A stretch of DNA of 64,000 nucleotides from Cyanidioschyzon merolae (lineage: Eukaryota). The translations under genes and the position numbers were made by a program. The stretch's first letter is position 1, and each line of letters starts with the position of its first letter. Below are positions 2,193-60,617 of the stretch, one piece after another. The notes under the pieces are model-generated. The model was not told where the DNA came from, searched no databases, and saw nothing but the letters and a program-made list of their open reading frames with translations. Where the stretch lies: NCBI GenBank assembly GCA_000091205.1, contig AP006499.2. One strand, 5' to 3'.

Positions 2193-4542
2193 AGACGGTG
2201 TCTGCGAGAGCACTGTAGAAGCTCACACTGGCACGTTTTGGCCGGAGCTCTCCAGACGATAACAGAGAGCATTGCTCCGAGGGAAGCACCTATGTGCGTC
2301 TCGATATGCGGCGTCCATCCAAGGCCGCAGTCTTCAGATTCTCAAGCGCTCCTGAGTTGCCTTACGAGGAAGCGAAATACTGGCACTTCTATCGTTGGTG
2401 TTTGCGAAGACCAGCGGCGGCACGAAACTTCCAAATGATTGTGACGCGATACAGAAGGCGAAGCTCGGTAATCCCTCGATCTATGAAGACGAAGTGTGCT
2501 GCGTTAGCATGGAGCGCATGGTGTTCCCAGAGTCCGATAAGACAACTTCCTGGATTTTTTTCTGATCTGAATGACACTGCGTCTCAGGGTAGTAGCTGGT
2601 GTCGTGCTTTCGATGTCATCCATTGCGTCTTGTACCTAAAGCGCGCTGTGAAAGCGCTAACACACAATTGATGCTTCTGGCGGTAACGTGCCTGGTGGAA
2701 TTGCTGTGAAGGCTTCCCCTGGAAAACATATCCGCGGGGAAAATCTTCCGAGTGGTGAGATGCAGGACTCCATTTGGCATCACGTAGCTTCTTACTCGAA
2801 AAAGCCGCATCGAGTTTCACGGGACTCGACGCAGCTCAATAAGCGACTCTACATTTGAGGAGCGGACGCAAGACTTCCAGCTGTCTACATTTCCATGGGA
2901 CTTTTCGATCAAACCTTTGTGCGTCGATGCAGCCAATGCACGGGACAGAAGACGTCATTCAGCCTGATGAAAAGGTCAGCGTGTTGCACATACGGGTGCC
3001 AGCATACTTCGATGCGTGGCTGCACCACCTCTTCCACAGAAACGTCTAGATCGCTGGCGCCAACGAGCGTTAGACACAGCTCACAAACCAAAACAATATG
3101 CGGGTCAATCTTGGGCGCTTCACGAAGTGCACCTCATGGGCGCCGTATTTTCTATTTACTGCCCCGAACAAGTGGGGATTGATGGAACGCGTTCCTGAAC
3201 CTGGTGATGCAAGGAAATGGCGAGTTGATGGTAGCCGAAGACGACAACATGGTGGCGAGTTCGAAAGCGATACCCCAACGAGATCGGGAGTCGCCTTGGA
3301 TCGTCGATGCTGACCGTGCATCGCTCGGCCTTGGAGCTGAGAAGCTCTCATTCAAAAGATGGTGAGATCGTGATGCTTCGCTTCCGGGAATCTTGCGTCA
3401 ATGCGTTCTGTGAAACAGAAACCGCCGCCCCAGAGCAAAAGCAGACGCGCTCTTCGAATCCGCGCGTCATCACGCTCCTCGAGCATCCATTCGATCCAGT
3501 TCTCATGTGTCAGATCAAGTCCGACGATATCGCCGTAGACACTTCTGTGCTCCACGGGGTAGTGCTGCTCGGCTTCCTCAGTGAGCTTCAGTTGATCTCT
3601 GCGAGCGAGTACGATGCAGTCAACCAACGTGAGGAGTAGTATCGGTTGTTGCCGTTCAGGGTTTCACGTTTACACGCGGGAAATCGAAAGCAGTCCACGG
3701 GTACGATGCGGCCCGCTGGCATATCCATCGAGATGCACTTTGTGAAACCTAGGTCCGAGTCAAGCGGCAAGACTCATTTGCATCTATGCGACATAAAAGA
3801 ATTGGAAGACCTTGTAGCGGGGCGTGGATCTCGGATTCAAATGCGTTATGGCCTTCGCCATTCCGCCAAATCAGGAGAACGGAGCCAAAGACCTGGACTG
3901 AAACTAGACGATGATGCTGCACAGCTTTTTTTCGTCGACAATGATCGAGACTTGGATATGCTGGACACCAGGACGCCCACCTCGATGCGCTGAACGCCGA
4001 ATCGAGTCCAGGGTGATGCCCAAGAAGCTGCATTCGGAGCGTGCATGAGCATCCCAAATGGATCACGCGGACGGCATCTTTATTTTCTTGGAAGGAATAC
4101 ATGGGAGTGCGCTGGCGTCGCCAACGTTTTCAATTGCACGGAGGAAACAAGCGTACGTTCGCCAACTTGTCCCATGAACTGGAAAAGGGACTAGCAAACA
4201 TGCCGCATCGTCTTGGGTTCGCCGCTGACGCTGGACGTATTGTGTTGCGCACGGGCTGCATACCTGCATCTTCGTTAGAGCATCCATCAAGTCCAGAAAT
4301 CGATTCTGTTGGATTTTCGTGAATGCGTTCAGGACGAGGTACACGCATCACAAACGCAGGTACACGCGGACACACTCAGAGAAGTAGAGCATGAAACAGA
4401 GCTGAATGCACGAGATGGTGTCCGGTACGCTGCCCGAACGTCGGCTGGCGAGGCAATCGAGGCTGTGCAGTTCGCCACGACATGAGTCTAACAGCGACAG
4501 CGCGCACAAGAAGTTCGCATGCACCGACCCTTGAACACCTCG

Positions 4543-4738
4543 ATGAAGACCCGTCAATGTGCACTGCCTCGGGAGCGTCCGACCGCTGGATGTCGAGCGA
4601 ACTTGCCAATGAATCGTTTCGTACGCAGCATGGGCGTTAATCAAGTCCCGTCAATGTGCACTGCCTCGGGAGCGCCCGGCCGCTGGATGTCGAGCGAACT
4701 TGCCAATGAATCGTTTCGTACGCAGTATGGGCGTTATG
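4543..4738. repeat. local tandem duplication, 2 x ~98 bp (tgaagacccgtcaatgtgcactgcctcgggagcg...gggcgtta)
   Basis: A near-identical 98-bp block is repeated head-to-tail in the intergenic region between the ZIP gene and RPLP0. The short ORFs 4519..4872 and 4700..4960 reflect this duplication rather than coding sequence. Confidence 0.8.
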
Positions 4739-6077: not shown

Positions 6078-6493
6078 TGCACGCCTCGGAGTAAGGCTAG
6101 GACGCGGTTATCTGAACTTGTCACCGTATTCGATAAACGCTCACGCAGAGTGCCGCCCTCGTGAGTAACGAAGAAAGCCGCCAAGGCAGAAGCGAGCGCC
6201 ACAGGCTACGCGTGGGTCTACAGCGTCCCCGAATGAGCGGGGTGGTGTGTGGGCCGCAGCGACGTGCGACGTCGCGCCGTCCAGCCGAACAAAGTCTACA
6301 ATCATTGTATATAATGGGAAGGAAAGGACATGAGCACCGAAAGCGCAGAGCTGTGCGCGATCGCTGTGACGCGAGCGCGCCGATCTGTCGACAGTCGTTC
6401 AGCTCGGGTCTGTTTCAGCCCTGCTGCGTGATATCGAATGCTTTTTCGCAGTGTATAGCCGGAGATCGAAATCACGTTGCAGTGAACCACATA

Positions 6494-7822
6494 CAATGTA
6501 GGCATCTCGCGTATAGGACATATTCTTTACTGAAGATCGCAACGAGGATTGCATTCCTCGTTCGGGTCAGTTATATCGCTGTACTCAGGTGACTGAGGAA
6601 CAATGAAAGACCGCCATCAAAGCGCTCCGCGCCGAAAACCGGTGTTGTCAAAGACTGCCTGCGGCCAGTTGTAGAGAACGACACGTTTATCTTCTTGCGG
6701 AAAGCAGAAGCGACGACAGTCGTCACCGTGGGCGTCTCTGTTGCTCAACAGCCTATTCGTGTGGTCCAGAATACACTGGGTACAGTCCCAATGTAAGTTC
6801 AGGTTCATTCACAGCCATTTTCCACCGAAATAGCGACGACTACGTTGCTGGAACGTCGCGGCCTGTATGACGCACAGGGATTTCGGTTTGTTTTTTTAGT
6901 CGATGAGACTTTCCTCGGATGAGACTGTCAGAGCGTATGTAGAAATTCACGGAGAGCGAGCCTGTAGTATATAGCATGGAACTCGGAGAGAACGAAGACA
7001 TTATCTGTTCCAGCTGCAGTGGATTTATATGGCGGCCTCAGCTTCGCTGATAGGAAAGACTCATCGAACAGCACCAACCACATCGTCGAATCATTGAAGA
7101 CTTTTTCCAGACGTCTGGCGATGTCCTTCTATAGGATGACATTGTATTTCACCATCCGGCTTGCGTTCGAGCTTTCGCCGATTCTACCTGGATAGAGCTG
7201 CTTTTTGAATCCTCCGTAATCTCTATGGACTGACCCCATCGAAGAAGTGTTTTGAATCGGAAAACGTAAAGATCACTCCACTGGGCGATTCGCTGGAGTG
7301 TTCAGGACACGGCGACACACCGGGCTACATTACGTCTTTGTTGCGCAAGTGCTTGCCCCTCCGGAAAAGTCCTCATCCCGGGGCATACAGAAGTGTGTTT
7401 CTTTTGATGAACTAAGAAATCTGAGGGCTGAGCTGAGGCGTGCGCGTCAGAGGGTCGAGATGGAAAAGTGCCAGCGCAGCTCTGAGGACATAGAAAAATA
7501 CGGAGCGCTGACGAGGGACCAAATTGAAAACAGGGCGCAAGTTTGAGAGCTATTCGCATGAGTGTATACAACCAACGGCGGCAAGAAACGCAAAAAGTTC
7601 GTGATCCGAGACTTTAACGCTGCTATGAATACCAGGAGATGTGCGGTACTAAAAACGAGACCCGCGGAAATGACGCGAGCCAACTCCGTGGGAGAACCTC
7701 GCAAGGTCGAACTCTACGCGGAGAAGTCGAAACCTGTCGCAGGGGGCCAGTCCAAAAACGCCGGGATGCACCTGCGAATCGATATTCATTTACCCTGCAC
7801 ACTCGTGAAAACGTTTTGTCAG
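6494..7822 (+). mobile_element. degenerate Tc1/mariner-superfamily DNA transposon relic, copy A (~1.33 kb, the most decayed copy)
   Basis: It aligns at nucleotide level along its whole length with the copies at 40347..41674 and 59168..60506. The left end is gtaggcatctcgcgtataggacatattct and the right end is a subterminal block ...gtcgaaacctgtcgcagggggccagtccaaaaacgcc...cgatattcattt. It retains frame-broken remnants of the transposase, including the C-terminal peptide VEMEKCQRSSEDIEKYG...RDFNAAMNT. Multiple stops and frameshifts make it non-autonomous. Confidence 0.55.
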
Positions 7823-7983
7823 TTTGCGCGCGCACTCGTTCATGGGTATACGCTGATGCGCGCGGATGCGATCACGCTCGCGATGCGCCTCTGAGGCAGC
7901 CTCTGCACTGAATTGTCGGTTGAATCCGTCGACACGCTCTGAAATACGCCGAAAATGCTCTCCTAACCGCGAATCTGAAGCTT

Positions 7984-12001: not shown

Positions 12002-12845
12002 GAACTCCCGAGCCGCAGACCAGCTTGAACTAGACGGTTTGCCCGGAACACCCCCAGACTTTTATCGAGAGCGACAGAGGTCGCGCGTTGAGCGGTACCA
12101 GTCGCCGGCCGGTGCCCCGCTGCAGTGTTCGGTGCAGGTGCAGACTACGCAAGAGCACCCGCTTTGGACGTCACACGTGTGGAGCGGGGCTCGCGCTCTT
12201 GCCGACACCTTGTGTTGGCAGCCCGAGCTGATCGCGGGTAAGACCGTATGTGAACTCGGTGCAGGAGCTGGCCTGGTCTCGATTGTAGCGTTTCTAGCGG
12301 GTGCGGATCAGGTTGTCGCGACCGACTACCCGGATCCGGAAATACTCAACAGCCTAGAAAGCAATATCCGAGAGCATACGGCGAATAGCTGCAGTTCTGA
12401 AACAGTCAAAAGAGCCAGCCCAAAGGTCGTACCATATCGCTGGGGCGATTCGCCCGATTCTCTTCAACGATGTACTGGCTTGCAGCGTTTCCAAGTCGTA
12501 TTGCTAGCGGACCTGCTGAGCTTTCATCAGGCGCACGATGCACTCTTACGTAGCGTGAAGATGCTCTTAGCGCTGCCGGCCAATGATCCCACCGCCGTCG
12601 CACTGGTGACATTCACTCACCATCGCCCGCACCTTGCGGAGCGCGATCTTGCTTTTTTTCGCCTTGTGAACGCAGACGGAGCACTCATCGCTGAACCGTG
12701 GCTGTCACCGCTGCAGATGGATCCGATGTTCCCGGACGATCCCGGGGATGTCTGCATCAGGGGTCAGGTGCACCGCTGGCGCCTGCGCTGGCGCTCTGCG
12801 GCGAGCGCATCTGCTAATATCCCTGCTCATGCACGGAATGAGTGA
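12000..12845 (+). CDS. Methyltransf_16-type (FAM86/METTL21/Nnt1-like) SAM-dependent protein-lysine methyltransferase, 281 aa
   Basis: ATG at 12000-12002; the longer track ORF from 11676 has no upstream ATG. It carries the family motifs [12 protein letters not shown] and the SAM-binding motif [11 protein letters not shown] followed by [17 protein letters not shown]. The stop codon at 12843-12845 lies inside the first unit of a 68-bp tandem array. Confidence 0.7.
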
Positions 12846-13110
12846 CCTCGAGAAGCGCTATGCTGTATGCATTCGACACGCAAGCTTCTACGGCTACTCG
12901 TGTTGATGAGTGACCTCGAGAAGCGCTATGCTGTATGCATTCGACGCGCAAGCTACTACGGCTACTCGTGTTGATGAGTGACCTCGAGAAGCGCTATGCT
13001 GTATGCATTCGACACGCAAGCTTCTACGGCTACTCGTGTTGATGAGTGACCTCGAGAAGCGCTATGCTGTATGCATTCGACACGCAAGCTTCTACGGCTA
13101 TTCGTGTTGC
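12838..13110. repeat. minisatellite, 68-bp unit x ~4 (atgagtgacctcgagaagcgctatgctgtatgcattcgacacgcaagcttctacggctactcgtgttg)
   Basis: Four head-to-tail copies at >95% identity. Unit 1 begins 5 nt before the methyltransferase stop codon, so unit 1 holds the last two codons and the stop and the remaining units form the 3' flank/UTR. Confidence 0.9.
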
Positions 13111-13756
13111 TGTTGTTGCTGATCCTATTGTTGTGATAACGGTGGCGACGACGGACGCCTTTGGCTACGGATCATCACGCTGCGGGCGATGCTGGCAACG
13201 AGTCCGCGTGTATCCACAGCCCGCATCGTAGAGGCGTGGATACATCTCGCACGCGACTTTCTGAGAATTCCATGTCGAGTTTACAGTGTGCCTGCCCCGA
13301 TTATGTGTCGCTACCGCTGTGCCAATGCCGCTTCGATCGGAGACGTCGCGTGACTGGTCAGTGACCAAAAAACGAGCAAGAATCGACTGCGGCAGTTGCG
13401 TTACCGAGTGACTACGGGATCGGCGGTGAGGAGCGCCGAATCGCCACCGAGGATGACAGCAACAGCTTGGTTCATAGGCAGAGCGCATCGTCCAACACCT
13501 GACTTCACAATGTTGGCGTGTTTCCGGTAGAATACAGCGCGCATCCACGTTGAAGTCGCGAGGCATTGCACGGTCCCTGTGCACCATTTTAGAAAACGGA
13601 CGCGAATTGCGTGTGTGTGCGTGTTCATGGTCCATGAAAATCGCAGCCTGCAACAGTAGTGCACAGAATTTTCAACGACCTTTACGTCCAGTTTGGGGCC
13701 AAAATGGCTTTCGTATTGATGAGGGCGCGCCTTGGTCACTGTTCCGGCATCATTCT

Positions 13757-23860: not shown

Positions 23861-24685
23861 GTCCCACTGCCACTAGTCATCAGCGTTCTACTGGGTCCGA
23901 GTGTCACCTGCTCAGGCACGTGTGCTTGCAACCCTGTCATTTTCAGATCTTTAGTACCGTACCACTAGTCATCAGCGTTCTACTGGGTCCGAATGTCACC
24001 TGCTCAGGCACGTGTGCTTGCAACCCTGTCATTTTCAGATCTTTAGTAACGTACCACTAGACATCAGCGTTCTACTGGGTCCGAGTGTCACCTGCTCAGG
24101 CACGTGTGCTTGCAACCCTGTCATTTTCAGATCTTTGGTACCGTACCACTAGTCATCAGCGTTCTACTGGGTCCGAGTGTCACCTGCTCAGGCACGTGTG
24201 CTTGCAACCCTGTCATTTTCAGATCTTTGGTAACGTACCACTAGTCATCAGCGTTCTACTGGGTCCGAATGTCACCTGCTTAGGCACGTGTGCTTGCAAC
24301 CCTGTCATTTTCAGATCTTTGGTACCGTACCACTAGTCATCAGCGTTCTACTGGGTCCGAGTGTCACCTGCTCAGGCACGTGTGCTTGCAACCCTGTCAT
24401 TTTCAGATCTTTGGTAACGTACCACTAGTCATCAGCGTTCTACTGGGTCCGAGTGTCACCTGCTCAGGCACGTGTGCTTGCAACCCTGTCATTTTCAGAT
24501 CTTTAGTAACGTACCACTAGACATCAGCGTTCTACTGGGTCCGAGTGTCACCTGCTCAGGCACGTGTGCTTGCAACCCTGTCATTTTCAGATCTTTAGTA
24601 ACGTACCACTAGACATCAGCGTTCTACTGTGTCCGAGTGTCACCTGCTCAGGCACGTGTGCTTGCAACCCTGTCATTTTCAGATC
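23861..24685. repeat. satellite-like tandem array, 92-bp unit x 9 (ccactagtcatcagcgttctactgggtccgagtgtcacctgctcaggcacgtgtgcttgcaaccctgtcattttcagatctttagtaccgta)
   Basis: Nine head-to-tail units with a few variable positions (tagtaccgta/tggtaacgta, agtcatc/agacatc, ccgagtg/ccgaatg). Each unit carries one perfect CACGTG (E-box/G-box) palindrome. The array ends ~200 bp upstream of the apyrase ATG. The 73-84-aa ORFs inside it (23839.., 24085.., 24290.., 24637..) are repeat artefacts. Confidence 0.92.
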
Positions 24686-30350: not shown

Positions 30351-30720
30351 ATCCCAGACGTCTCCGGGCGCCTCGTACTGTTTCCTGATCAGAATTGTAT
30401 AGTAATAAACAATTATAGCAATATATATCTACCTTTGGTGTTGGGCGATTGCGGACAGCACCGTCGAGGAACCATCCCAGACGTCTCCGGGCGCCTCGTA
30501 CTGTTTCCTGATCAGAATTGTATAGTAATAAACAACTATAGCAATATATATCTACCTTTGGTGTTGGGCGATTGCGGACAGCACCGTCGAGGAACCATCC
30601 CAGACGTCTCCGGGCGCCTCGTACTGTTTCCTGATCAGAATTGTATAGTAATAAACAATTATAGTCATATATATCTATCTTTGGTGTTGGGCGAATGCGG
30701 ACAGCACCGTCGAGGAACCC
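30351..30720. repeat. tandem direct repeat, 123-bp unit x 3, in the 5' flank of the receptor-kinase gene
   Basis: The three units (30351, 30474, 30597) are >95% identical: atcccagacgtctccgggcgcctcgtactgtttcctgatcagaattgtatagtaataaacaa(t/c)tatag(c/t)(a/c)atatatatcta(c/t)ctttggtgttgggcgattgcggacagcaccgtcgaggaacc. Each contains an AT-rich TATA-like core. The array lies 160-530 bp upstream of the kinase ATG on the reverse strand. Confidence 0.9.
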
Positions 30721-31742
30721 AGTGACACACGGATGTGTTTTCGAGATGGACAATGGGCATTCGTCGTTCCTAGCATTCGAAAGGGTGTTGATGATGAGGA
30801 TAACGACCGCAGCGATCCCGATACGAAATCGGGGAATTAGTGTACGTCATTCATAGCATTCGACGGGTGTCAATAGGGATGTCCATGGCGGCGATCGCGT
30901 GACGGTTTCCGTACCTGGGGTTGTTGTAGGCGCAAGCGGTGCATATACGGACGTTTCCATCTGCGCTTCATTCTCGATTTGGCTCTTCTTGTTCGTATAC
31001 AGCATCGATGTGCGATTCGGAACTGGCATGCTAGCCTGTGGTTGATTGCGGGAGCGGCGTGCCCTCGTATGTCCGCCGTATCGCCTTCTCTGGAAGCTGC
31101 ACTGCAGTGCTTGAACGCTTGCTCCATCTCTCGGCAGTTGTTCTTCATGAGCACAGAGGGCTTGCCTCGGTGCGTCTCTCCGTGTTGGCGCCATATACCA
31201 TAGTGCGGAATTACCGCGTCGTTCTGGGCGATGCTGTCCGTGAATATGCTTTCTGGTGGAAGCGCGAGCGCATGCTTACTCGTGCGATAGAGGATTTGCA
31301 GAACGCGATGTTTTCCATGATGACACGCAAGAATCGCGAGAAAAATTAAGACTGGTGGAAGCATACGAAACTTTGCAACTGTCGCTGGTCCCATGACGCG
31401 AATCGACGACGCACTCTGTACTGAAAGGGATCGCTGTGATAACGAAGTCCGAATTCTAGACCCTTTTCTACGCACACACACACATACACACAGAGAAGAG
31501 CCGGAAGTCTCCGGAAGTATACCCCACGAGATGGATCATAGGGCTGCTGCGGGCCTGCCGTTTCGTCGATAGCCACAATGAGATGAGGATTTATCGTCGC
31601 AACGGAATCGATCATGTGATTTGAGAAGGTCACGAACTGGTCGGCAGGAGCTTGTGAAGAAATCGTCAAGGGACGCCGTCGAGGTTCTTCGCTCGTCAAA
31701 GTCATGCGACGGAGATCTTTGGACGCACGCTGTTGTTTGCTT

Positions 31743-39835: not shown

Positions 39836-40035
39836 CAATGCATGGGATCTGGTGTTTCCGGAAGCACGCTCGTTGTAGGTAGTCGTGGAATCGACGTCTG
39901 GTACGCATGAGATCTGGTGTTTCCGGAAGCATGCTCGTTGTAGGTAGTCGTGGAATCGACGTCTGGTACGCATGAGATCTGGTGTTTCCGGAAGCATGCT
40001 CGTTGTAGGTAGTCGCGGAATCGACGTCTGGTCCC
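39836..40035. repeat. tandem repeat, 65-bp unit x 3, 340-540 bp upstream of the UGGT start; each unit contains the palindrome TTCCGGAA
   Basis: Three units start at 39846, 39911 and 39976 (gatctggtgtttccggaagc(a/c)(c/t)gctcgttgtaggtagtcgtggaatcgacgtctggtacgcatga). Because 65 is not a multiple of 3 and the unit is stop-free on the reverse strand, it generates the spurious N-terminal extension of the UGGT ORF and ORF 39675..40196. Confidence 0.9.
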
Positions 40036-40346
40036 TCACGAGCGCTGCAGCGTTTCTGGGCGAGCTCGAGATCGATCTTCTCGTTGGGTGTATCTCGTCG
40101 CTCGATCCGACGAGCTTTCGGGTGCTGCGTGTTCTGGTGGACACTTGTCACGTCGCTGCTAGGTGCGCTGCCCCTAGTTTTCCCGAGGGGCACCACGGCT
40201 TTGTCATAGATGCAGGGGTATGAGGTAGTCGTACCGATGAGGACGCATGGTGCTGCGGCGAGTCGCTAGCGCCCAGACTCATACCCGTTTCACCACCGCT
40301 GCGGTGGATAGCAGGCCATCGACGTCAAGATGTAATGTATTGGAGA

Positions 40347-41674
40347 GATCGTAGACGAATTGCCCGTAGGATATATTCTCTACTGAATAGTGCAAGGGGA
40401 CTGCATTCCTCTTCCGAGTCGGTCACATCATAGTACTCTGATGACTGGGGAACACTGAGCGCAACAAGTAGATACGCTCCGCGCCAAAAAGATGGTATTA
40501 TCAAAGCGTGTTTGTGGTCATTCGTGGAAAACGACCCGTTGATTACCTCACAGAAACCAAAATCAACGATGATATACGCCACGGGTGCTTCTGTTTATCA
40601 TCAGCTTGTTCGTGTCGTCCTATAAATACTGGGATAAAATCACAAAGAAGTCCAGTTGCACATACGGGCATCTACCGAAATCGCAACTAAAACATAGTTC
40701 ATGGAATGTCACGACTCGTGTGAAGCGCTGGAACGTCGTTCTATTTCCGCAGTCGATGTCGCTTTCTTCGGATGAAGCGGTCGGAGCGCGTACGGATATT
40801 CGCGGAGAAGGGCCCTGTTGGACGTTCGATCGAACGCGAAGACAACGAGGACATTATCATTTATTCTAGCTTTAGAAGATGTATTTGGTGGCCTCAGTTT
40901 CGCTCGTAAAAAAGACTCATGCACTAGCGCCAACCAGTTTGTCCAAGCACTAAAGACTTTTCCTTGATGTCTGGTGACGTCCTTCCATTGGACAACGCGA
41001 CATTTCACCGTTCTTCTCGTGTCCGAGCTGTTGCCGATTTTATCCGGTCAGGGCTGCTTTTTATTCCTTATTACCCCTCGAATTTTTGAATCCAGCAAAG
41101 GAGTTTTGTCTATCGTGAAAAGTTATTACCGCTGCACTGGGAAAATCGCTGAAGCGCTCAGCACACCGCAACAAACCGAAGCACTTCGTGTTTCTTCCAC
41201 AAGTCCTTGTCCATCCGTGAAGGTCCGTTCCTGTGAGCATAAACAAGAACGTTTATTTTCAAAAATTAAGACATCAGCTGGGGCGTACAATGTAAAAGGT
41301 CGAGATGGAGAAGACCCAGCGGAGCGTCTCGGCGATAGAAAAGCCCTGAGAACTGATACAGCACCAAATTGCACAGAGCGCAAGCGTTCGAGGACTCCTT
41401 GCAATGGTGACTTCCACCCGCGGCAATGCACGCAAGGAGTCTGTGAATCGAGACTTTAACGGTGCAATCAATATCAGGGGATGTGTGGTACTATAGACGA
41501 CACCTGCGGAGCTGACGCCATCTAACTTTAAGTAGCAACCTCTCAGGCTCGAGATGTACAGGAAGAAACTGAAACCGATCGCAGGATGCCGGTCAAAAAA
41601 GCCCAGGTGGCGTCAACGTGTAGACAGATACATTTGTCCTCCATGTTCATGAAACATTCTTCGTATCGCTGATC
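40347..41674 (+). mobile_element. degenerate Tc1/mariner-superfamily DNA transposon relic, copy B (1328 bp)
   Basis: The left end gatcgtagacgaattgcccgtaggatatattc and the right end ...cattcttcgtatcgctgatc form imperfect terminal inverted repeats (~13/17 matches, beginning GATC). The HTH remnant is VENDPLITSQKPKSTMIYATGASVYHQLVRVVL. The catalytic remnant is MSGDVLPLDNATFHRSSRVRAVADFIRSGLLFIPYYPSNF, which keeps the DNAxxH and PPYSP-like blocks. The C-terminal remnant is ...VEMEKTQRS...VRGLLAMVTSTRGNARKESVNRDFNGAINIRG, followed by a conserved non-coding subterminal block. The reading frame is broken in several places. Confidence 0.6.
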
Positions 41675-42613
41675 ATGTCTACACGTAGACCAGCCGCTGA
41701 CGCATGGTCCAGCGGCGGAGACGGCATGCATTCAGTGCATTCCATAAATATACAGATTGGTGTATGTTTTGGGGCAGGGCCTTTTTTGGGTCAACGGCGT
41801 CTCCCGGCAGCGGTTCCTCGTCAGCATCGGTGCGCTGCTCACGTCGCTGACCTTCGACGGATGAAGTCTCCCAGAGAAAGTGTCTCTTTTATCGCGCCGC
41901 TGAGTGTCCGGGTAGCTCAAGCGAGCTCGCCAGCGTCCGGGCGCTGGGAGCGTCCGCGGCTGCTGGGGAAGGGTGCTCCGCTGGTGCCGCTGCGACGTCG
42001 TCCACAGGCCCGGGTACACGCGGCGCTGCGCTTACGTTGCGTCGAAGGCACCGATTCCTTGAAAGGCATTCAGGTCGACTGTGAGCAGAAGATGGAGAAG
42101 ACTATCGTCTCGCTCCGGAATAACCTGGCAGCGATTCGAACGAGTCGTGCCTCGCCTGCCTTACTGAACCGCATCCAGGTCAAGTACTACGGGGTTGACA
42201 CACCGCTGCTCCAACTAGCGAGTATATCGACGCCGTCTAGTACCGCCCTCCAGATTGAACCATACGACAAGTCGTGTCTAGGGGACATTGAGCGTACCAT
42301 TGCGGAAAGTGACCTAGGACTGACTCCATCCAACGACGGCAACGTGATACGACTGAACGTGCCACCGCTTACCGAAGAGCGACGAAAGCAGCTCGTCAAG
42401 GCTGCCAAGGAAATGGCAGAGGAAAGCCGCGTTGCCTTGCGCAATATCCGTCGCACCGGCGTGGATGCGGTGAAAAAGCTCGAGAAAGGGAGCGAAATCA
42501 GCAAGGATTTGAGCGCTGACGCCCAGGATGAGCTCACGAAAATGATCAAGCGATTTGAGGCAAAAGTCGATGAAATCATGCGCGCCAAAGAAAAAGATAT
42601 CATGACCGTGTAG
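41675..42613 (+). CDS. organellar (mitochondrial-type) ribosome recycling factor, 312 aa including an N-terminal presequence
   Basis: The conserved RRF domain starts near IQVDCEQKMEKTIVSLRNNLAAIRTSRASPALLNRIQVKYYG and continues through EPYDKS, GLTPSNDGNVIRLNVPPLTEERRKQLVK and EESRVALRNIRR to the C-terminus. The ~125-aa N-terminal extension is Arg-rich, acid-poor and presequence-like. The first ATG at 41675 immediately abuts the right end of transposon copy B, so a downstream ATG (for example the Met at MKSPRESV) may be the true start. Confidence 0.8.
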   Translation: MSTRRPAADAWSSGGDGMHSVHSINIQIGVCFGAGPFLGQRRLPAAVPRQHRCAAHVADLRRMKSPRESVSFIAPLSVRVAQASSPASGRWERPRLLGKGAPLVPLRRRPQARVHAALRLRCVEGTDSLKGIQVDCEQKMEKTIVSLRNNLAAIRTSRASPALLNRIQVKYYGVDTPLLQLASISTPSSTALQIEPYDKSCLGDIERTIAESDLGLTPSNDGNVIRLNVPPLTEERRKQLVKAAKEMAEESRVALRNIRRTGVDAVKKLEKGSEISKDLSADAQDELTKMIKRFEAKVDEIMRAKEKDIMTV

Positions 42614-46067: not shown

Positions 46068-46327
46068 ATCAACGAAAGCCTGCTCATAACCTATGCATTT
46101 CGTGGTGGTATCGGAGCGAGTTTCAAAATACCTCTGGGGCGTCTTCCGGCAACAGCGACACGGTATCGGAGGCCGCGCGTCCGTACGCGGCGTATTTATC
46201 AACGAAAGCCTGCTCATAACCTATGCATTTCGTGGTGGTATCGGAGCGAGTTTCAAAATACCTCTGGGGCGTCTTCCGGCAACAGCGACACGGTATCGGA
46301 GGCCGCGCGTCCGTACGCAGCGTATTT
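46068..46327. repeat. local tandem duplication, 2 x 130 bp (>97% identity)
   Basis: The block atcaacgaaagcctgctcataacctatgcatttcgtggtggtatcggagcgagtttcaaaatacctctggggcgtcttccggcaacagcgacacggtatcggaggccgcgcgtccgtacgc.gcgtattt is repeated head-to-tail and is intergenic. The near-identical ORFs 46002..46370 and 46093..46395 are artefacts. Confidence 0.9.
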
Positions 46328-50336: not shown

Positions 50337-51712
50337 TGTCGCCGTGAATAGTCAGTGTCCGGAGTGCCAGTCCCCGCGGCAGCGTTTCTGGACCGTCGGC
50401 AGCGCAGGGCAACGCCCCTGCAGCAGCAGCGCCTGATGGCCGCAGAGCAGCGCGCTGCTGCTGCTGCTGCTGCTTCTCTGGGAGCGCTCAGGTACGGCAT
50501 AGGTTGCAACATCCTCGTGGATCGAAGCCTGCATCTGTATCTATGTCGGGTTTCAGATAAAAGGGGAGCGTTGAATGGATCATTCTGCTCCTTCATTCCA
50601 AAATTCCGAGCGATTTTGGGTGCACAAAGTCGACAATTGATGTTCGTCAATATGTGGTTACGGATTCAGACGTAGGTTTGGGGTTATTGGTCGTGCTTGC
50701 TGGGTGGATCCGTCGCATCGTTGCCGGTGACATGGGGTTACTTCACGGGAATCCAGATGATTCGCGGCGCTGCTGACCAAAATCTCCTCAAATAAACGAT
50801 ATCATTATCGAGTTTATAGGTTGAGGCCTCCGCTCTTCTCCTGTCGTTGAACGTGGCATGCTTGATGCACACACTCTTCGAGTTTTTGAGCTTTCGTCCC
50901 GATGAAGACTATCGACGTCGTCTCTTGGACTGTTGTTCACAAGCTCATGCCGAGACATCAGTGATGTCCTCACGTCAAATGATCATCGAGTCCTTCCGAA
51001 AGCGAAATCCGCGTCTCTTTGTAACCACCGACAAGGCGATATTCCACAGCAGCGTGATACCTTTCACGGAACATGCTCCTAAAGGCTTCCATTTCTTCTG
51101 TTCCCATCGAATAGGATCTCGCAATCGCACTTGATTCATCGTGGCGATCGCATCGCGTGCAGCGTAGACAAGTCAGAATTTCTCTAAGACTTGTCCAGCA
51201 TCGATTTGCCTCCCCGTACTGGTTTCCAGGTAACAACATCGCGTTCCGCAAGCCTTTATTGGGATGGACAGCTTGCGGTTGCGCGTGCAACGCACAGCCT
51301 AGTCGTCGGTGTGATTGCTTCCAAGGAACACGCAGGCTTCGTAGATAGCATCGGGTGCGGAAGCAGACGAGGGCGTCGTGCATAGTCTTCTGTTCTCGCC
51401 AAGGGCATCCACCCAGCGATAAGGTAAGCTCGTTTGCGACAGAGCGCGGCCCTCAGTGGATGGCAAGGTGTGTTAGACATGCGGGAACTCCAGATCACAT
51501 CAGGGTCATCGCTGTGAAGCGTGCACCGACGCTGTACACCCTGAGACGATAAAAGCAAGCGAAGCGCAGATAACGAGTTTCCCCAGTGCGTGCAATGCGT
51601 CGACAACGAAAGGGACCCGAAATCCGCCATCAATATTCTTCGACTGCTGACAGCGATGCCACAGGCGCGATAAAGACCGGCGTATTCGGCACCAGGAATA
51701 AGAGGTGGCTGA

Positions 51713-52418: not shown

Positions 52419-54802
52419 ACTGGCAAGGCAGCTGTGTTGCCTTCACGTCTGCTTCGTAACCGGGACCCGGGTCAAGGCAACATCGTTCTCTGGGGCGCGT
52501 ACCTGCTGCCGTCGACGAGTCACCGTACACGTGCTACCTGCAATGAAAGCTTCATGCGAGGATACTCTATCTATACACATGTGATCGATATTCTTTGGTG
52601 CAGATGCCGGACGCTTATCAGAGGAGCGGCCCAGGCGTGCCGATTGCGGAGCTTTTGCTCGAAAGCTACCAATTCGAAGTCTCTGGACGCGTCTTCGCAG
52701 TTGACGAACGAGACGACGTGGGTGCTTGCTGGGCAGTGTTTCCCATCGGGTCTGTACCGCTTGGCGCCGCTCCTGCATATCCCGCGGAAGCGGCTGTGCT
52801 CACGCCAAGAGATTACCCGTACGTCTGGGCAGCAGTTCGATACCCGCTGTCGATGATCTGGTTGGAGCGTAGAATCGCCAAGCGCGGTTTCCTTGTGACG
52901 CAGCGATGACGCATCGTACTGGCGCTCCCAGTGACAGAGGCTTGCGGAACGCACACGCTCGGAGCTAGGCAGGTGACAACGCCGTCCCGTTGCGAGCGGC
53001 AATATAGGTGCCAACCTAAAGCAGCGGATGCCAGCGTGCGACAGAGAGAGGCCCGTTTGCCCGTGTTTTCTACTTGAAGATTCTCTGGTTACAGGCATGG
53101 TACGTAGGAACGATGATCCGAACTCGGCACCGTCAGATGCGCCGCTGCCGCTAATAACTCGGGAAGAAACCTTCGTTTCTTGCTGCGTGCTTCAGGGTTC
53201 TTGCAGCGCCTCTCCCGAGTTCCGCACGGGTACTCAGATTTGACGAGCGAACGACCCTCGAGCTGCAGCGTCTACCGCAGACATTGTATAGAGTCATGGC
53301 CCCATTGATGTGTTTCTGGAGAGGCTTGCTCGGGGCCATCCGCAAAAACTGGCGTTGCACCAAACCCATGTCAGAGTAATATGACACCGCTTCAGTCAGC
53401 TGACTCTAGCGAACACATTCAAGTTTAGATCGCGTTTTGCGATCATCGATGCCAGAACTTGGCCGTTTTTCCTTCGACTGCTTCTTTTAGTACGTCGTAT
53501 CCCCGGCTTGAAATGCGCTGGTATCTCGTTGCGGTCCAGTTCCGTTTATCAACAGTGAGAGGATACTGATGCCAGCGCTTTAGTACATATTTCGTCGGTT
53601 CCGACAATTGTTGACCCCTTGCATGCACAGGCGAACGTTGTGATCGTTTCCGAGTTTCATCTGCTTTGTATATAGCCTCGGCGCTTGCATATTAGCGGTG
53701 CCACGTTCGTGGGGGAGGGGTCAGGTATTGGCCTACGTCCGCAAGGGTGCCGCCTCTTTCTCCAAGCACTGGCCCTAGGTGCGTGAAAGCTTGGTTCACC
53801 GAACGGCGCATGCCCGTGAAAAGCACTGACGGGTACCCTGAATATCCATATTTGTTTCCGCTCTCTGTGCCGTATCCTAGGACCATGGACTCCTACTGCT
53901 CGGCGATTTCCTCGACAAGAACGGTGTCCGCTGCATGTGCAAGCACACACTGTTACAGTCGGCGGAGCGTTTATGGAACGCAATGCTTTCCATGATGAAA
54001 TGAATGTCGGAAGAAAAACCGGGACCGTCGATCAACTCGAGAAATTCGATCCTCCTGCGCTAACTTCGTGCAAACCGGCGAATTACTCCCTATTTGAAGT
54101 GATCGCTGCGGTGACTCAGTTCCGAGTCCAGGAACCTTATCTATTCGAATAGAGGAGGTGGGAGCGTCTGCGAGCAAATGCGACAAGTAGTATCATGCCG
54201 CTGTCGAATCCAGTTCCGTCGATAGCCATAAAGCGAGGCGGATGCATTTTTTGAACGGAGTCGATTATTGATCGTGACAAGCAGAGTGATGTTTTAGGCA
54301 CGAGCTTGTACACAAACCACCAAGGGATGATGTCGCGTTGTTTTCCTCGTCGATAGAGCGGTACGCATTGATGCGTCCACGGGTTGGCGTGCATCAGAAA
54401 GGTCGCAAACCCGAAACACGCGTGCATTGAGTATGCCACATGTAAGGAAAGGACGGGAACGAAGCCTGCAGATATGGATTTGATATTGGTATCCGTTATT
54501 TAACAAACCCCTTGGTGGACGGTGTCGCGAACCCTCCTGTTGACGATGATGAAACGAGCGGCTTCTGTCGAGCGTTGCATGCGCTACGCGGAATACGTGT
54601 TCGAGAACCCAAAACTGCTTTTATCCATAAGCCCTTATTGCTGCATATCGATTGTCGAGGCTGTACATGATAAACATTTTTCGGAAAAAACAATGACTAA
54701 AAGAGAGCGAGCAGCACAGCGTTCCATATGTATCGAGGACGGCAGCAGAGTCGCCATTCCGAGATAGGCGCCTCGGTGCTGAGGTCAATATCAAGGACGT
54801 GA

Positions 54803-55972: not shown

Positions 55973-58900
55973 CCTTTGTTGGTGCATCCCTTGGTGCGCT
56001 TTCGTAGGGTGCGAGGCGGCGACGCGGTTCTTTTTGGAGCTTGTTCTGATTGTTCACAACGCGAGCCAAGTTCGAGCGTTTTTGTTTACGTCTCTATCGA
56101 GCTTTGGCAGCGCGATTGCGGTTCAGAGGACCGTAGTATATATAGAGATATTCGTTGGACGCTCGTTGTTCATGCATGAAGTGCGCACACGGCTCTTTCC
56201 AGTCTAAGCAGGTGACGCTGCTTGCAGGGTTCGGGTAGCCTCCCGTCGCGCCGGCGATCGTTCGATGCACCCAATGTGCGTTCCTTCCGATTTGGAAGAA
56301 ATCATGCTGGTTGATGATTTTTTTTGCAGACGATCCAGCTCTACGCGGCGATAGACTCGGCTGATCACGTCACTAAATACAATCCACTGGATATGCTGCA
56401 TTCCTGCTGATTAGGGCTGTCGCTTCCTTGCAATGCTTCTATGATTATTCTAAAGTTGCGCATCGTTGAATTCTCCGTGATGCAACGATCCAGAGACAGA
56501 GCTCAATATCCATACACACGTCTCGAATGGAGCCGCGGGGTCTGAGAAAGCCATCCGCTGGTGCTGCACAGAATCCCGGCCTCGAGGGAGGCCTCTTCAT
56601 GGAGCGCAACCAGGATGGCTTATTAGATTCTCGCGGTAGACAGCTCTTCATCCTGTGAGATATTTCGCTACAGGTTGATAAGCCGTTTTTCGTCAACCCA
56701 ATCTACTGCTCATGCACTTTGCGCACTTCCATGAGCGCCCAGAATGCACGTTGCCCCTGCTACAAGGGCGACCTTCTGAAAGTCAGCCAGCGCACCTGTC
56801 ATCAACACCACACATCTCAATCGATCCATCGGTATACTTTCCAGTAGTATCGCATGGAAGAACCTTAGCGCTAGAGCGTAAGCACTTCGCGGTCCTCACG
56901 TGTCAATGCTGGTTCGTGGGCGCCGCATCGCTCTTTGTATAAAACAGAAGAGCAAAGAAATGTGCCACACTGGTGTGCTTTTTTGGAATCCCTCGTACAA
57001 GACACATGCCTCGCTTTTTAAGGCTGGGCTTGCCCTCTATTCGGAGCAGGCAGGACGTTGCCTCATGGGATGCAGACGGCATCCAGTGCCCATGAGTAAA
57101 AAGAACAGCATCGAAGCACTTACCAGCAGCCATAGAACAATTTCTTTCCCCTCTCCTGGAGGCATTGAAAAGGGTGAAAGGATCCCGTATTTTCAAAAGT
57201 TTACCTCATGGGCGGAGGGGGCCCGCGAGCTGGACGAGTCTGCCGGGCTCGTGCTTCATGCTCGCCCCGGTGGCGGGTGCCTTGACGAGACCCGAGCAAC
57301 TAGCCCGCAACGCAGCTCACTCCGGGACTGGCGGTGGTTAGGCTGTGTCTGAGCGTCAACTTGGTCGCGGTAATCTCCTCGTATATCGCTTTTCGCTGCC
57401 GCAGGCAGTAGGTCTGTGTGCGCAGCGTGCAGGTTCCCAGAATGATGATGAAACCCGATTCTGTGACTAGTGAACCGCACCTCGAGTCCACGCCCTCAAT
57501 GATATGGTAAAGACGTTCTCTCTCCGTGCTAGGACTGTATTGACGCTATATGCTCTATCGAGGAGGATCAGGGCAGGTACTCGGCGCACGATAGGACGTA
57601 CGATAAGACCTGCACATCCGAGTGGAAGTATAAGTAATGGAACTTTAAAGTTCAGTGTAGCAGATTGGAAGCGTTCCCGAATGTCAGTATCCATCCCGCT
57701 GTAGGGAATCCATGGTAAACGTAAACGATTTTTTTGACAAAAATATCTGATGCCCTCACAGGCATTCGATTGCTGTCTGTAGCCGATAATCGCCGGCCTA
57801 GTGCGCAGCACCTGCATCCCAGCGCGATGAGCGGCGCTCGTAGGGCCGGCATCCTCACTGGTTTAGCAAAGCAGTGCGTGTGTTTCCGTGGTGCGTCAGC
57901 AAAAGAGCAGCAGGCGCCTATGCGGGCGTATATGGCATATTTGGCGCCTCGGTGAAGCCTGTGAGCGAACCAGTCTCTCAAAAGCCAATTCTGGGATGTT
58001 CGTGGTGGTGGCGGCCAGTGTACCTTTCAGCTGTGGAGCGGAATGATGGACGCTCTCCGGCACGCCGATAGCTATCGCGCAACCGAGGCTGCCTGGCCTC
58101 TGTAAACGTTCCGCCTATGAAAAACCTTCGCTGCAATACGTTCCTTCAGGCAGGCATTGCTGACGAGCGCTATTCTGAGAGGTCAGCTCGCGCCCTGTAA
58201 AATTCAAGCGAGTACGATATGCGCTACTTGATGGATCCGATATCGGGAATCGCACCACTAGGCTGTGATTTAGCAGTGGCGCATACTCGCTTTTCGAGCA
58301 ATTTGCTGCCGTGTTTCTCATTGCCAGCGCACTTTCAACTCCTATTCGAGTGAATTTCTAGCGAAGCGACGGCTACACGTTGCATGCATGGATACAGATG
58401 ATTGCTTGACACGAATTCTGCCCTCGGCCGTGTGCAAACGCTGTTACCATGGAGAATTTCCTACAAGTGTCCATGAATACCACTGCTTCCGCATACGCTC
58501 TCGGTAGGCTTTGAAGAGATATTTTTTTCACAGAGGCTTCCAAAAGAGCATTCTTCGTAATTCCTCATAAAACAACGACACCATCGGTGCGATAGTTCAC
58601 GCTTCCGCGGAAATCCCATGCCAAATTCCAACTTCTGTGCCGCATGATGAAGGCCGCGCCGGTGGCCATCGCTGCGGCAGTGTGGAGCGGCCCAGTTCCG
58701 GCGAGCACGAGGGAACCACAAAGCCGCTCCGCCGACGAGCGGAGGCCAAGCAACGACTGCAGCGGTTGTGGCGGCATATCCGGCTTTCTAGCCAGCGCCG
58801 ACGTGAAGCCCTGTCATCCAGTGAAACCGGCTCGCCGCATCCTGGTTACGCCTCCGCGCCACTGGAAGACAAGTCCCGGGTGAGTGATGCCTTGAGGTGC

Positions 58901-59167
58901 ACGGAGCGATTTCGGGCTTGTTCAACACGGTTGCTAAAAGGAGTCAGGCATCTGGGGCATCTCGATGGGGTGTACCGTTCGCCGCCCATTCATCATCGCA
59001 AAAAATAGCGGTGACAGCATGCCCTGATCGCCTTGCGCATTGGAGAACTTTTGAAAAGGCGTATGGAATTCTTTCGACTCAAGTGTGTCGCACCCGTGCT
59101 GCGTGTAATCGAATGCTTTTTGGAATGATTAGAATGCGACCGGTACCCAGACGCAATATACCGTATA

Positions 59168-60506
59168 GATCGTAGACGAATTGCCTCTAGGATATATTCT
59201 GTACTGCACAGTGCAAAGGAGGACTTCATTGCTCCCTCAGATCAGTCATATTACAATACTCAGAAGGCCGAGGAGCACCGAAAGAAACAAAAGTATGCGA
59301 TCCTTGCGAAATACGGAAAATCGCAAAGCGCGCTTGCTGTCAGTGGTGGAAAACGACCCGTTGAGCGCGTTACGTAAGGCAAAAGCGACGATCGTAGCTA
59401 CTGCGGGCGTCCCTGTTTCTCACCAGCTTGTGCGCCAGTTCCTGAAAGCATTAGGATACAGTCGCAAGAAAGTGTTCTACTTCAGCCTGCAGTCAACCCC
59501 TACCGATATTGCAGCTACGGTGTTCCTGGAATGTCCCGATTGGTATGAGGCACCGCAACGTCGCTTTATTATTTCAATCGATGTGACTTCCCTCTGACGA
59601 AACGGTCGGAGCGTACATAGGAATTCGTGATGCAGGAAGCCCGTTGTGTGCCCAATCCATTTCGAGGAGATCGAGGACATCATCTTTTTCTAGCTACCGT
59701 GGTCTGATTTAGCGGCCTCAGTTTCAATCGTAGAAAAGAATCGCGCAACAGCGCAAAGCCCTCTTTCGAATCACAGAAGACGTTTCACTCGATGTCTGAC
59801 GATGTCCTTCCACTGGACAGCATGGTAAGCCACCATTCCCATTGCGTTCGAGCCGTTCCCGCTCCTATCGGGGTACAGCTGCTTTTCATTCCTCCGTTCT
59901 GTCCGTGGTTCGACCCCACCAAAGCAGTACTGGCTATCGTGAGACTTGATGCGCGCTCCACTGGGAGCATCGCTGAATCGCTCAGCACAAGGTGACAAAC
60001 CAAGGTACTTCGTGTTTCTTATGCAAGTCCTTTTCTTTTTCCGGAAAAGGACTTGCCTATGGGCACAGAGTAGTGCGTTCATATGAAGAAATGAAAATTC
60101 TATAAGATGAGCCACGGTCTACGCTCCAGAAGGCCGAGATGGAACTAAGCCAGCATAGCGCTTCTGTGATAGAAACGTACGGCGAGCTGACAGAGCAGCA
60201 CTTGACACAGAAGGCACGAGTTCGAGGACTCCTTGCACTGACGAATCCAAGCAGTTGCAAGAAACGCATCGAATTCGTGAACGGGGACTCCAACGTTGCT
60301 ATCGAAATCAGGAGATAGGCGATGGTGAAGACGAGGCCCGAAGAGCGGATGCAATCCATCTTCGTGAAGCACCCTCTAATGCTCGAAGTGTACAGGGATA
60401 AACTGAAACCGATAGCAGGCAACCGGTCAAAAAAGGGTGGGAGGCATCTGCAGGTGGATATTCATCTACACCACACGGGCGTGAGACATTGTTCGTTTCA
60501 CTGATC
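59168..60506 (+). mobile_element. degenerate Tc1/mariner-superfamily (DD~34D, mariner/pogo-like) DNA transposon relic, copy C (1339 bp, best-preserved copy)
   Basis: The left end is gatcgtagacgaattgcctctaggatatattc and the right end is ...cattgttcgtttcactgatc. ORF 59181..59597 encodes a Tc1/IS630-type HTH: LLSVVENDPLSALRKAKATIVATAGVPVSHQLVRQFLKALGYSRKKV (cf. ENPFxSxxxIAxELxxxVSxxTVRRxLxxxGLxxRxxRKKP). ORF 59792..59995 encodes catalytic-domain remnants DDVLPLDSMVSHHSH (the DNAxxH block) and, 32 aa later, LLFIPPFCPWFDPTKAV (the PPYSPDLNPIE-type block). C-terminal remnants are ...EMELSQHSASVIETYGELTEQHLTQKARVRGLLALTN...VNGDSNVAIEIRR. All parts are in different frames, so the copy is non-functional. 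Confidence 0.65.
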
Positions 60507-60617
60507 GCTTTGCAGATGCGACCAGATCGATACCCGCCTGTATTTTGACGTTGTTTTTTGTCTTCATAGCTGCGCAAAGCGGTTTTTTTGTTTCTGGGCG
60601 AGCAACGTGAACGACAT

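Follow-up and report, generated by a model that had tools for sequence, protein, structure and literature searches.

Genomes of the Cyanidioschyzon merolae type are a model of the minimal, nearly transposon-free eukaryotic genome. Transposons of the Mariner/Tc1 type that carry a Fanzor1 gene have been described as PUl-1 and PUl-2 from Pythium ultimum and as PGv-1 (Bao & Jurka 2013, PMC3627910), and autonomous 'Mariner/Tc1' associations of Fanzor have also been reported by Jiang et al. 2023 (PMC10530073). C. merolae itself has a Fanzor1, CMe-1; the corresponding family, CMe-1A, has a 3169-bp consensus, ~150 copies and no terminal inverted repeats (TIRs), its class was left unclassified, and its 5' 635 bp is a separate ~70-copy element, TE-N2_CMe (Bao & Jurka 2013, PMC3627910). 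The CMe-1A elements presumably correspond to the 3.2-kb WSV486-like repeats of Nozaki et al. 2007 (PMC1955436), who also counted eight class II 'transposase-related elements' in C. merolae 10D that are most similar to bacterial transposases (E=0.071 to 6e-7). Here we describe three dispersed copies, A, B and C, of a transposon family in a 64,000-nucleotide stretch of C. merolae contig AP006499.2 (assembly GCA_000091205.1), which we refer to as the window. These copies very probably belong to an old, neutrally decaying family that arose by internal deletion from a composite transposon combining an IS630/Tc1 transposase with Fanzor1.

All three copies lie on the + strand, and both self-blastn of the window and a MAFFT alignment with few gaps align them end to end, in agreement with the initial annotation of this DNA. 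In blastn, 59149-60435 of copy C is 67.7% identical to 40328-41601 of copy B over 1301 columns, and 59070-60469 of copy C is 66.0% identical to 6395-7793 of copy A over 1411 columns, giving an overall identity among the three of 66-68% over ~1.3-1.4 kb. The family consensus and the element boundaries were obtained from 16 copies, namely A, B, C and 13 metagenome loci that are described below. In this alignment identity goes from a flank level of 0.25-0.31 to 0.55-0.72 inside the element, climbing on the left at ...cTTA/TGGTCTTTCAACTCAGTTCTGTTCCAC and dropping on the right past GTGAAACATTTTTTGTTTCACTGACCG/TA, where the slash marks the boundary. The homology of copy C starts at 59062, ~105 bp upstream of the 59168 that had been proposed; the 3' boundary proposed at the same time, 60506, is within 3 bp of the end found here (~60507-60509) and can be kept. 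The corrected spans of the three copies, each of which is to be read as approximate, are given in Table 1.

The copies are relics of a DNA transposon of the IS630-Tc1-mariner superfamily, as the initial annotation had recognized. Stop-masked raw translations of single copies produced only sub-threshold Pfam matches to DDE_3 and helix-turn-helix (HTH) families, and none for the Fanzor part, with copy C alone reaching E=0.004 against DDE_3, under the cut-off. Thus, a consensus had to be built. The 16-copy consensus encodes a complete 309-aa IS630/Tc1-type transposase that is collinear with intact relatives of ~300 aa and that passes the cut-offs of both Pfam DDE_3 (E=9.7e-23, 81.1 bits, cut-off 28.6) and the NCBIfam IS630 equivalog (E=3e-35, 122.2 bits, cut-off 100). 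Its catalytic residues are D141, D220 and E255, the latter two separated by 34 residues, which is a DD34E arrangement. The architecture had been read earlier as DD~34D, but the third catalytic residue of the consensus is Glu. Individual window copies lack some of the triad residues, and in copy C the Glu has been replaced (PTK). The peptide motifs quoted in the initial annotation are nonetheless real, with VENDPL...LGYSRKK representing the second HTH, PLDSMVSHHSH the second catalytic Asp block and IPPFCPWFDPTK the PPYSPWFNPIE block.

Whereas the DDE_3 match that had been predicted was recovered, the predicted match to HTH_Tnp_Tc3_2 stayed under its cut-off of 31.5 bits (E=7.8e-4, 20.1 bits), and HTH_33 likewise scored 17.9 bits against a cut-off of 25. 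The N-terminus of the consensus aligns along its entire length with relatives that carry HTH domains, and one intact relative, P0051, is above both cut-offs (33.3 bits for HTH_Tnp_Tc3_2 and 28.9 bits for HTH_33). A search of 5.8 billion proteins with a consensus of the three window copies matched 19 clusters, among them short relic open reading frames (ORFs) from hot-spring metagenomes and intact proteins of ~300 aa for which DDE_3 and HTH_Tnp_Tc3_2 domains had been precomputed (E=1e-33 to 1e-39, 37-44% identity, 94-99% coverage). The transposase ORF starts with MYRIDRRRIA, 48 residues upstream of the Met that had been chosen previously. Thus, GATCGTAGACGAA, which had been taken for the 5' arm of a TIR beginning with GATC, corresponds to codons 4-8 (IDRRR) and lies inside the transposase ORF.

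The 3' ~390 bp of the copies, which was missed in the initial annotation, is the tail of the Fanzor1 gene CMe-1 and comprises its last ~120-125 codons (translated as ...VRGLLAL....KKR.EFVNRDFNAAINIRRCAVLKTRP.ELT...). In blastn, CMe-1A nt 2736-3088 is 78% identical to 7429-7775 of copy A, 70% identical to 41272-41614 of copy B and 68% identical to 60107-60455 of copy C. At the protein level the fragments align to CMe-1 residues 598-728 (A), 598-721 (B) and 616-728 (C), residue 598 lying just before the RuvC-II sequence DEFRTS, and they are 51-59% identical to CMe-1 within residues 598-728 (tblastn, E=2e-26 to 6e-37). A protein search with the consensus of the 3' part found 45 clusters of short metagenome ORFs, some of which reach further N-terminally (...VVAYGAGRW...IPIDEFRTSYTHHELGCTLQRVEMEK). 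Pfam produced no match for full-length CMe-1 or for the Fanzor of L010, one of the composite relatives introduced below, and searches of the PDB with single sequences (P0013 and the L010 Fanzor) produced none either. Only a 16-sequence profile, made from CMe-1 and 15 full-length relatives, succeeded, matching the solved Fanzor1 structures 9cf0 (Parasitella, E=2e-19), 8gkh (Spizellomyces, 2e-12) and 9cer (Guillardia, 1e-8), with a second matched stretch that spans the retained C-terminal block. The retained part extends from about the remnant of RuvC-II 'DEFRTS' through RuvC-III 'NRDFNAAINI'. In tblastn with CMe-1, RuvC-I (GADPG, CMe-1 residue ~431) and everything N-terminal to it were absent from A, B and C, indicating that what is left is a stub, a gene fragment rather than a nuclease gene.

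One metagenome scan with the transposase consensus yielded 80 loci. Among them, hot-spring contigs account for 13 additional, distinct members of the family. B and C have no ortholog in this set, while the locus of copy A has an ortholog at ~99% identity in metagenome contigs L001-L003. All 13 share the layout of transposase plus Fanzor stub, the stub being present in all 16 copies. In seven sister copies, CMe-1A nt ~869-969 is clearly present between the transposase and the C-terminal stub; this segment comprises the Fanzor 5' untranslated region (UTR) and roughly the first 21 codons. In L027, an eighth copy, only a 26-nt trace of the segment is left. In some 40 environmental loci, from lakes, brines and soils, both genes are intact, with a CMe-1-like Fanzor1 of 586-781 aa downstream of the transposase on the same strand (L010, L017, L019-L022, L026, L031, L033-L043, L047-L054, L060, L063, L065, L066 and L084 appear intact). 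The relatives with the closest transposases (L017 and L019-22, 45-49%) also have the closest Fanzors (41-43%). Given that both ends of the Fanzor gene are kept in sister copies and that the relatives have a composite layout, a single deletion inside Fanzor explains all of these arrangements.

We therefore propose the following course of events, the order of which is conjectural. The parent would have been a composite cut-and-paste transposon of ~3.5-3.8 kb consisting of a TA target site, a ~30-bp TIR, a gene for a ~300-aa IS630/Tc1-type DD34E transposase, a same-strand Fanzor1 gene encoding a TnpB-like RNA-guided nuclease, and, at the 3' end, a structured tail followed by the right TIR and TA. 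Loss of about codons 22-597 from within Fanzor would then have given an element of ~1.4-1.5 kb with both TIRs and a complete transposase gene, which may have been able to move by itself. The window copies would represent a short-spacer subfamily in which a slightly larger deletion also removed the Fanzor start. A burst of amplification would then have carried the deletion derivative to no fewer than 16 loci. Each examined copy has since decayed neutrally to ~17% off the consensus, and only pseudogenes are left.

The ends of the family have the form TAyGGTC...TGTTyCAC, TAyGGTC and TGTTyCAC being the conserved blocks. In composites with both ends on the contig (L026, L033 and L010), the TIRs are 30-31 bp long with the form TAyACTC...TGTTACAC, and their complementarity is 90% in L026 (634-663/3712-3741), 81% in L033 and 71% in L010. 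The right end of the family matches the TIR of L026, which is intact, at 21 of 29 positions (by eye). A TA or a one-step derivative of it adjoins both termini in most copies, the 3' TA being intact in 5 of 12 copies, and TA also flanks L026 and L033; this is consistent with a putative target-site duplication. Base-pairing between the inner half of the right TIR and the sequence immediately before it gives a terminal hairpin (GGTCGTGAAAC-ATTTTTT-GTTTCACTGACC in the family consensus; 60478-60507 in copy C), and L026, a distant relative, has a similar right-end hairpin at 3695-3741. Judged by its predicted fold, this hairpin might serve as a palindromic binding site for the transposase or as the final stem of a guide RNA. 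The sequence GATCGTAGACGAA was also considered as an inner transposase-binding repeat of the inverted-repeat/direct-repeat (IR/DR) type and was set aside, as only 9 of 16 positions agree with the terminal motif (by eye).

Several points weigh against descent by internal deletion from a composite. The TIR is weak within the family, the 5' consensus TATrGTCTTTCAACTCAGTTCTGTTCCAC agreeing with the reverse-complemented 3' end TACGGTCAGTGAAACAAAAAATGTTTCAC at 16-17 of 29 positions (by eye), and a TA duplication is inseparable from the TIR without an empty site. Neither an intact or young copy nor a full composite was found in the Cyanidioschyzon-type contigs, so that the parent has to be reconstructed from relatives in other organisms. 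Variability is higher in the 5' leader (mean identity ~0.56-0.59) than elsewhere in the element, and this, together with a 22-bp indel that splits the copies, may reflect more than one source element. The indel (CGTGTAATCGAATGCTTTTTCG) lies in the 5' leader at 6440-6461 in A and 59110-59131 in C and is missing from B; it is carried by 6 of the 16 copies and absent from the other 10, which suggests two source subfamilies. In the short form of the leader, the bases around the indel make a near-perfect palindrome (CCACCGCTGCGGTGG in copy B).

A less probable alternative is an origin by recombination. An independent IS630-like transposon would in that case have captured the 3' end of a resident CMe-1A element through ectopic recombination or template switching. 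Chimeric structures are common among Fanzor elements (Bao & Jurka, PMC3627910), and the 3' termini of CMe-1A and of the family diverge past ...GGGAGGCGTCTGC. The Fanzor part of copy A is also nearer to CMe-1A (78%) than are those of B and C (68-70%), which could reflect gene conversion. However, the long-spacer copies hold both the start and the end of Fanzor, in the right order and orientation and downstream of the transposase, which is exactly what a single internal deletion predicts. Moreover, the order of transposase then Fanzor1 is the rule in the ~40 relatives, the identity rankings of the two genes agree, and the right TIR of the family is homologous to that of the composites. We consider capture improbable and retain internal deletion as the origin of the family.

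Each of the 16 copies is a pseudogene with stops or frameshifts. Diversity among them is equal at codon positions 1, 2 and 3 in each transposase segment and in the Fanzor stub (0.26-0.35), and a codon-position test for past coding selection among the copies showed no period-3 signal. This indicates that the divergence is post-insertional and neutral and was not built up in active lineages, an explanation that we rejected on these grounds. The pairwise identity of ~67% corresponds to ~0.43 substitutions/site between copies (Jukes-Cantor), indicating that the amplification burst is old. Variation between strains is at the intergenic level, with 23 variable sites/kb in copy A versus 16-27/kb in other intergenic DNA and 4-7/kb in the flanking genes. 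The copies have undergone neutral decay, not selection, and are inert intergenic filler in the present genome.

The initial annotation had instead viewed the copies as elements spread in non-autonomous form, which would make them comparable to miniature inverted-repeat transposable elements, with subterminal transposase-binding regions that stayed under selection for mobility as the ORF decayed. Such a history would agree with membership in the IS630/Tc1 superfamily and with the fact that all copies are dead, and B and C are indeed 82% identical in the first 60 columns past 59149. That block, however, codes for the N-terminal part of the transposase, and the 5' arm of the TIR then proposed falls within the same ORF. 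The ends had been put at ~85-90% identity and the interior at ~60-70%. We found that the mean identity of the three copies in 60-column windows is 0.57-0.73 throughout the element, with a mean of 0.69 in the first 60 bp past 59149 and 0.58-0.67 in the last ~100 bp, so the ends are no higher than the interior. The best-conserved window (0.73) is the Fanzor RuvC-III motif at 60275-60335, and in the 16-copy alignment conservation at the termini is, if anything, lower than in the interior. The flat identity profile, the equal divergence at codon positions and a strain polymorphism at the intergenic level all speak against selection on subterminal sites. Likewise, spread as non-autonomous elements does not fit a consensus with a complete 309-codon transposase, in which the deleted part is the interior of Fanzor1. 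Taken together, these results make such a history very improbable.

Because A, B and C are each followed, within 0-150 bp, by a + strand ORF (in order, an ORF of 496 aa, RRF and peroxiredoxin), they might be taken for paralogous promoter or 5'UTR segments belonging to host genes. The downstream genes are unrelated to one another, though, and the segments encode a recognizable transposase and Fanzor fragment, evolve neutrally, and have neighboring ORFs of mixed orientation at the 13 other, non-orthologous loci. The probability of the promoter explanation is in our view vanishingly small, and the initial annotation was correct in treating the segments as insertions. The finding that three of three copies are upstream of a + strand gene is best read as chance combined with the survival of intergenic insertions only in a compact genome. 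One of these neighbors overlaps an element: the first ATG of the mechanically called 312-aa RRF-containing ORF, at 41675, falls within the last bases of copy B (..GATCATG), whereas the Pfam RRF domain begins only at residue 147. The real RRF start codon probably lies further downstream.

We also considered whether the stub and terminal hairpin were retained for a function, either as a guide-RNA (omega-RNA) scaffold or right-end module served in trans by the Fanzor of CMe-1A, or as a host regulatory or RNA element. Guide RNAs of published Fanzor systems overlap the right end or TIR (PMC10530073), and the stub is common to all 16 copies. The 3' 250 nt of the family consensus folds better than shuffled sequences (z=-3.0, 0/200), as does the 3' 250 nt of CMe-1A (z=-2.98), while a transposase-coding control does not (z=-0.28); the 233-nt tail (3' UTR) of L026 has z=-2.76 and a hairpin that overlaps the inner right TIR as in the family consensus. 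By contrast, a sliding-window fold scan shows the 3' region to be mildly unusual at best (z -1.7 to -2.3), and the z-scores of that scan were rejected as proof of a guide RNA. The 3' region of present-day copy C is unstructured (z=+0.15), and a gathering scan of the whole window found no Rfam match. The stub diverges neutrally at every codon position, copy A is as polymorphic as intergenic DNA, and orientation relative to genes is mixed. Furthermore, both ends are necessarily kept by any internal deletion derivative, whatever the RNA does. Functional retention is, on this evidence, quite improbable.

A related scenario concerns the derivative when it was active. It may have functioned as a naturally split system that encoded its own transposase, retained exactly the guide-RNA module required in cis (ORF 3' end, structured tail and right-TIR hairpin) and borrowed its Fanzor from CMe-1A; we regard this as unlikely. 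If it were true, Fanzor would have acted in trans for guide-RNA-directed cleavage or homing at emptied sites, and the IS630-like transposase would be the long-sought mobilizer of CMe-1A, the most abundant repeat of C. merolae (~5% of the genome). Elsewhere in CMe-1A, consensus nt 401-600, within the TE-N2_CMe module, has the strongest predicted RNA fold of the element (z=-5.2), above that of its 3' end, and may be a structured RNA or DNA hairpin module; its window equivalent lies in 57100-57731 (-).

Table 1. Positions in the window of the three copies and of the features recognized in them.
Feature	Position	Strand	Remarks
Copy C, whole element	59062..60509	+	Identity rises at the 5' motif TATGG..TTTCGACTC and falls after CACTGATCG; 16-copy alignment
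Copy A, whole element	6390..7830	+	3' terminus degenerate; end good to about +/-10 bp
Copy B, whole element	40267..41677	+	Without a 22-bp stretch of 5' leader present in A and C
Left TIR, copy C	59062..59093	+	Includes leading TA (putative target-site duplication, 59062-59063); fits 5' consensus TATGGTCTTTCAACTCAGTTCTGTTCCAC
Right TIR, copy C	60481..60509	+	GTGAGACATTGTTCGTTTCACTGATCG plus degenerate TA, here CT
Transposase pseudogene, copy C	59156..60082	+	Start codon now ATA; several stops/frameshifts; tblastn with 309-aa consensus
Transposase pseudogene, copy A	6482..7405	+	One frame, 7 stops
Transposase pseudogene, copy B	40335..41259	+	tblastn with 309-aa consensus
First catalytic Asp block, copy C	59574..59597	+	SIDVTSL; consensus SVDETSF
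Second catalytic Asp block, copy C	59804..59836	+	LPLDSMVSHH; consensus LLLDNVVFHH
Third catalytic block, copy C	59903..59928	+	PWFDPTK; consensus PWFNPIEG; catalytic Glu gone; D220-E255 spacing is that of DD34E
Fanzor1 C-terminal fragment, copy C	60109..60489	+	About CMe-1 residues 612-734; in-frame stops; tblastn with CMe-1, E=2e-26
RuvC-III motif remnant, copy C	60274..60311	+	FVNGDSNVAIEIR; consensus FVNRDFNAAINIR; aligns to RD..NAA..N block of solved Fanzor1 structures
Fanzor1 C-terminal fragment, copy A	7394..7816	+	CMe-1 residues 598-728; 59% aa and 78% nt identity
Fanzor1 C-terminal fragment, copy B	41224..41634	+	blastn/tblastn to CMe-1A/CMe-1

Comparison with the PUl-type transposons shows that the inferred parent and the ~40 intact relatives have the same layout of TIR, DDE transposase, same-strand Fanzor1 and TIR, with TA beside the termini, and the transposase core is 30% identical to that of PUl-1 (E=4e-13). 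Unlike the PUl-type elements, the window copies are pseudogenes that lack ~570-600 internal Fanzor codons, the family transposase is short (~300 aa) and scores best as a prokaryote-type IS630, and the TIRs of the family are, in a rough comparison, unrelated to the published PUl TIRs. With CMe-1A, which belongs to the same host lineage, the family shares ~120 codons at the end of Fanzor (68-78% nt identity over nt 2697/2736-3088) and, in sister copies, nt ~869-969 around the Fanzor start. However, CMe-1A has no transposase and its 5' end is the TE-N2_CMe module, whereas the window family has a transposase and TIRs and lacks Fanzor residues ~22-597. The 5' 2.7 kb and the last ~85 bp of CMe-1A are unmatched in the window copies, and its 3' end differs from the right TIR of the family.

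The family also resembles bacterial IS630 elements, as the consensus passes the NCBIfam IS630 equivalog model (122 bits, cut-off 100) and, like them, the family has a DD34E triad, a transposase of ~300 aa encoded by one ORF, short TIRs and a putative TA-type target. The window family differs from them in residing in a eukaryotic nuclear genome and in being partnered with Fanzor1 rather than with a bacterial passenger. Going by the published description, the weak bacterial-like scores of the eight class II elements of Nozaki et al. 2007 are what decayed IS630-like copies would give, and those elements may be this same family, although the family occupies at least 16 loci in metagenome-derived relatives. 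The earlier suggestion that the family is unannotated is thus probably not wholly correct.

The window represents a compact genome of 55% G+C with long, intron-free ORFs (UGGT, photolyase, ribosomal protein P0, apyrase, RRF and peroxiredoxin), and its ribosomal protein P0 is encoded on JGI metagenome contigs at ~99% DNA identity over 7 kb. Exact-protein look-ups matched P0 to hot-spring metagenomes, and those with the apyrase and RRF ORFs had no match. Other sequences related to CMe-1A or CMe-1 are present as well. A 78% identical copy of the CMe-1A 5' 635 bp (TE-N2_CMe) occupies 57100-57731 (-), ~1.3 kb upstream of copy C, with a further fragment at 58035-58110 (-). An older and more decayed Fanzor1 relic at 3436-4354 (+) corresponds to CMe-1 residues 292-389, 524-585 and 595-612 at 28-61% aa identity; it sits between a ZIP-like gene and ribosomal protein P0, a position that is kept in L001-L004. 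Short dispersed repeats at 6-412, 31558-31689 (-), 50933-51076 (+) and 54040-54444 (-) are 66-73% identical, occur in both orientations, and match neither CMe-1A nor the transposase family. Near-perfect tandem arrays (95-99%) are found at 23870-24685 (~92 bp), 30351-30719 (~123 bp), 12838-13112 (~68 bp), 46068-46327 (~130 bp), 39840-40032 (~65 bp) and 4543-4736 (~97 bp). The 92-bp array is just upstream of the apyrase ORF, and the 65-bp array is within the 5' end of the UGGT ORF.

Both the Tc1/mariner-Fanzor1 transposons and the Fanzor family of C. merolae were already known, and the window copies are an ordinary relic family, very probably an internal-deletion derivative of a composite-transposon type that had been described before. 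What is new is the reconstruction of an IS630-like family with its ends and the recognition of Fanzor segments that it shares with CMe-1A; given these shared segments, an IS630/Tc1-type element is a plausible original carrier of CMe-1. The ~40 apparently intact composites are of possible practical interest for mining compact RNA-guided nucleases together with their cognate ends, and the relic family adds a red-algal case to the known partnership between Tc1/mariner transposons and Fanzor1.

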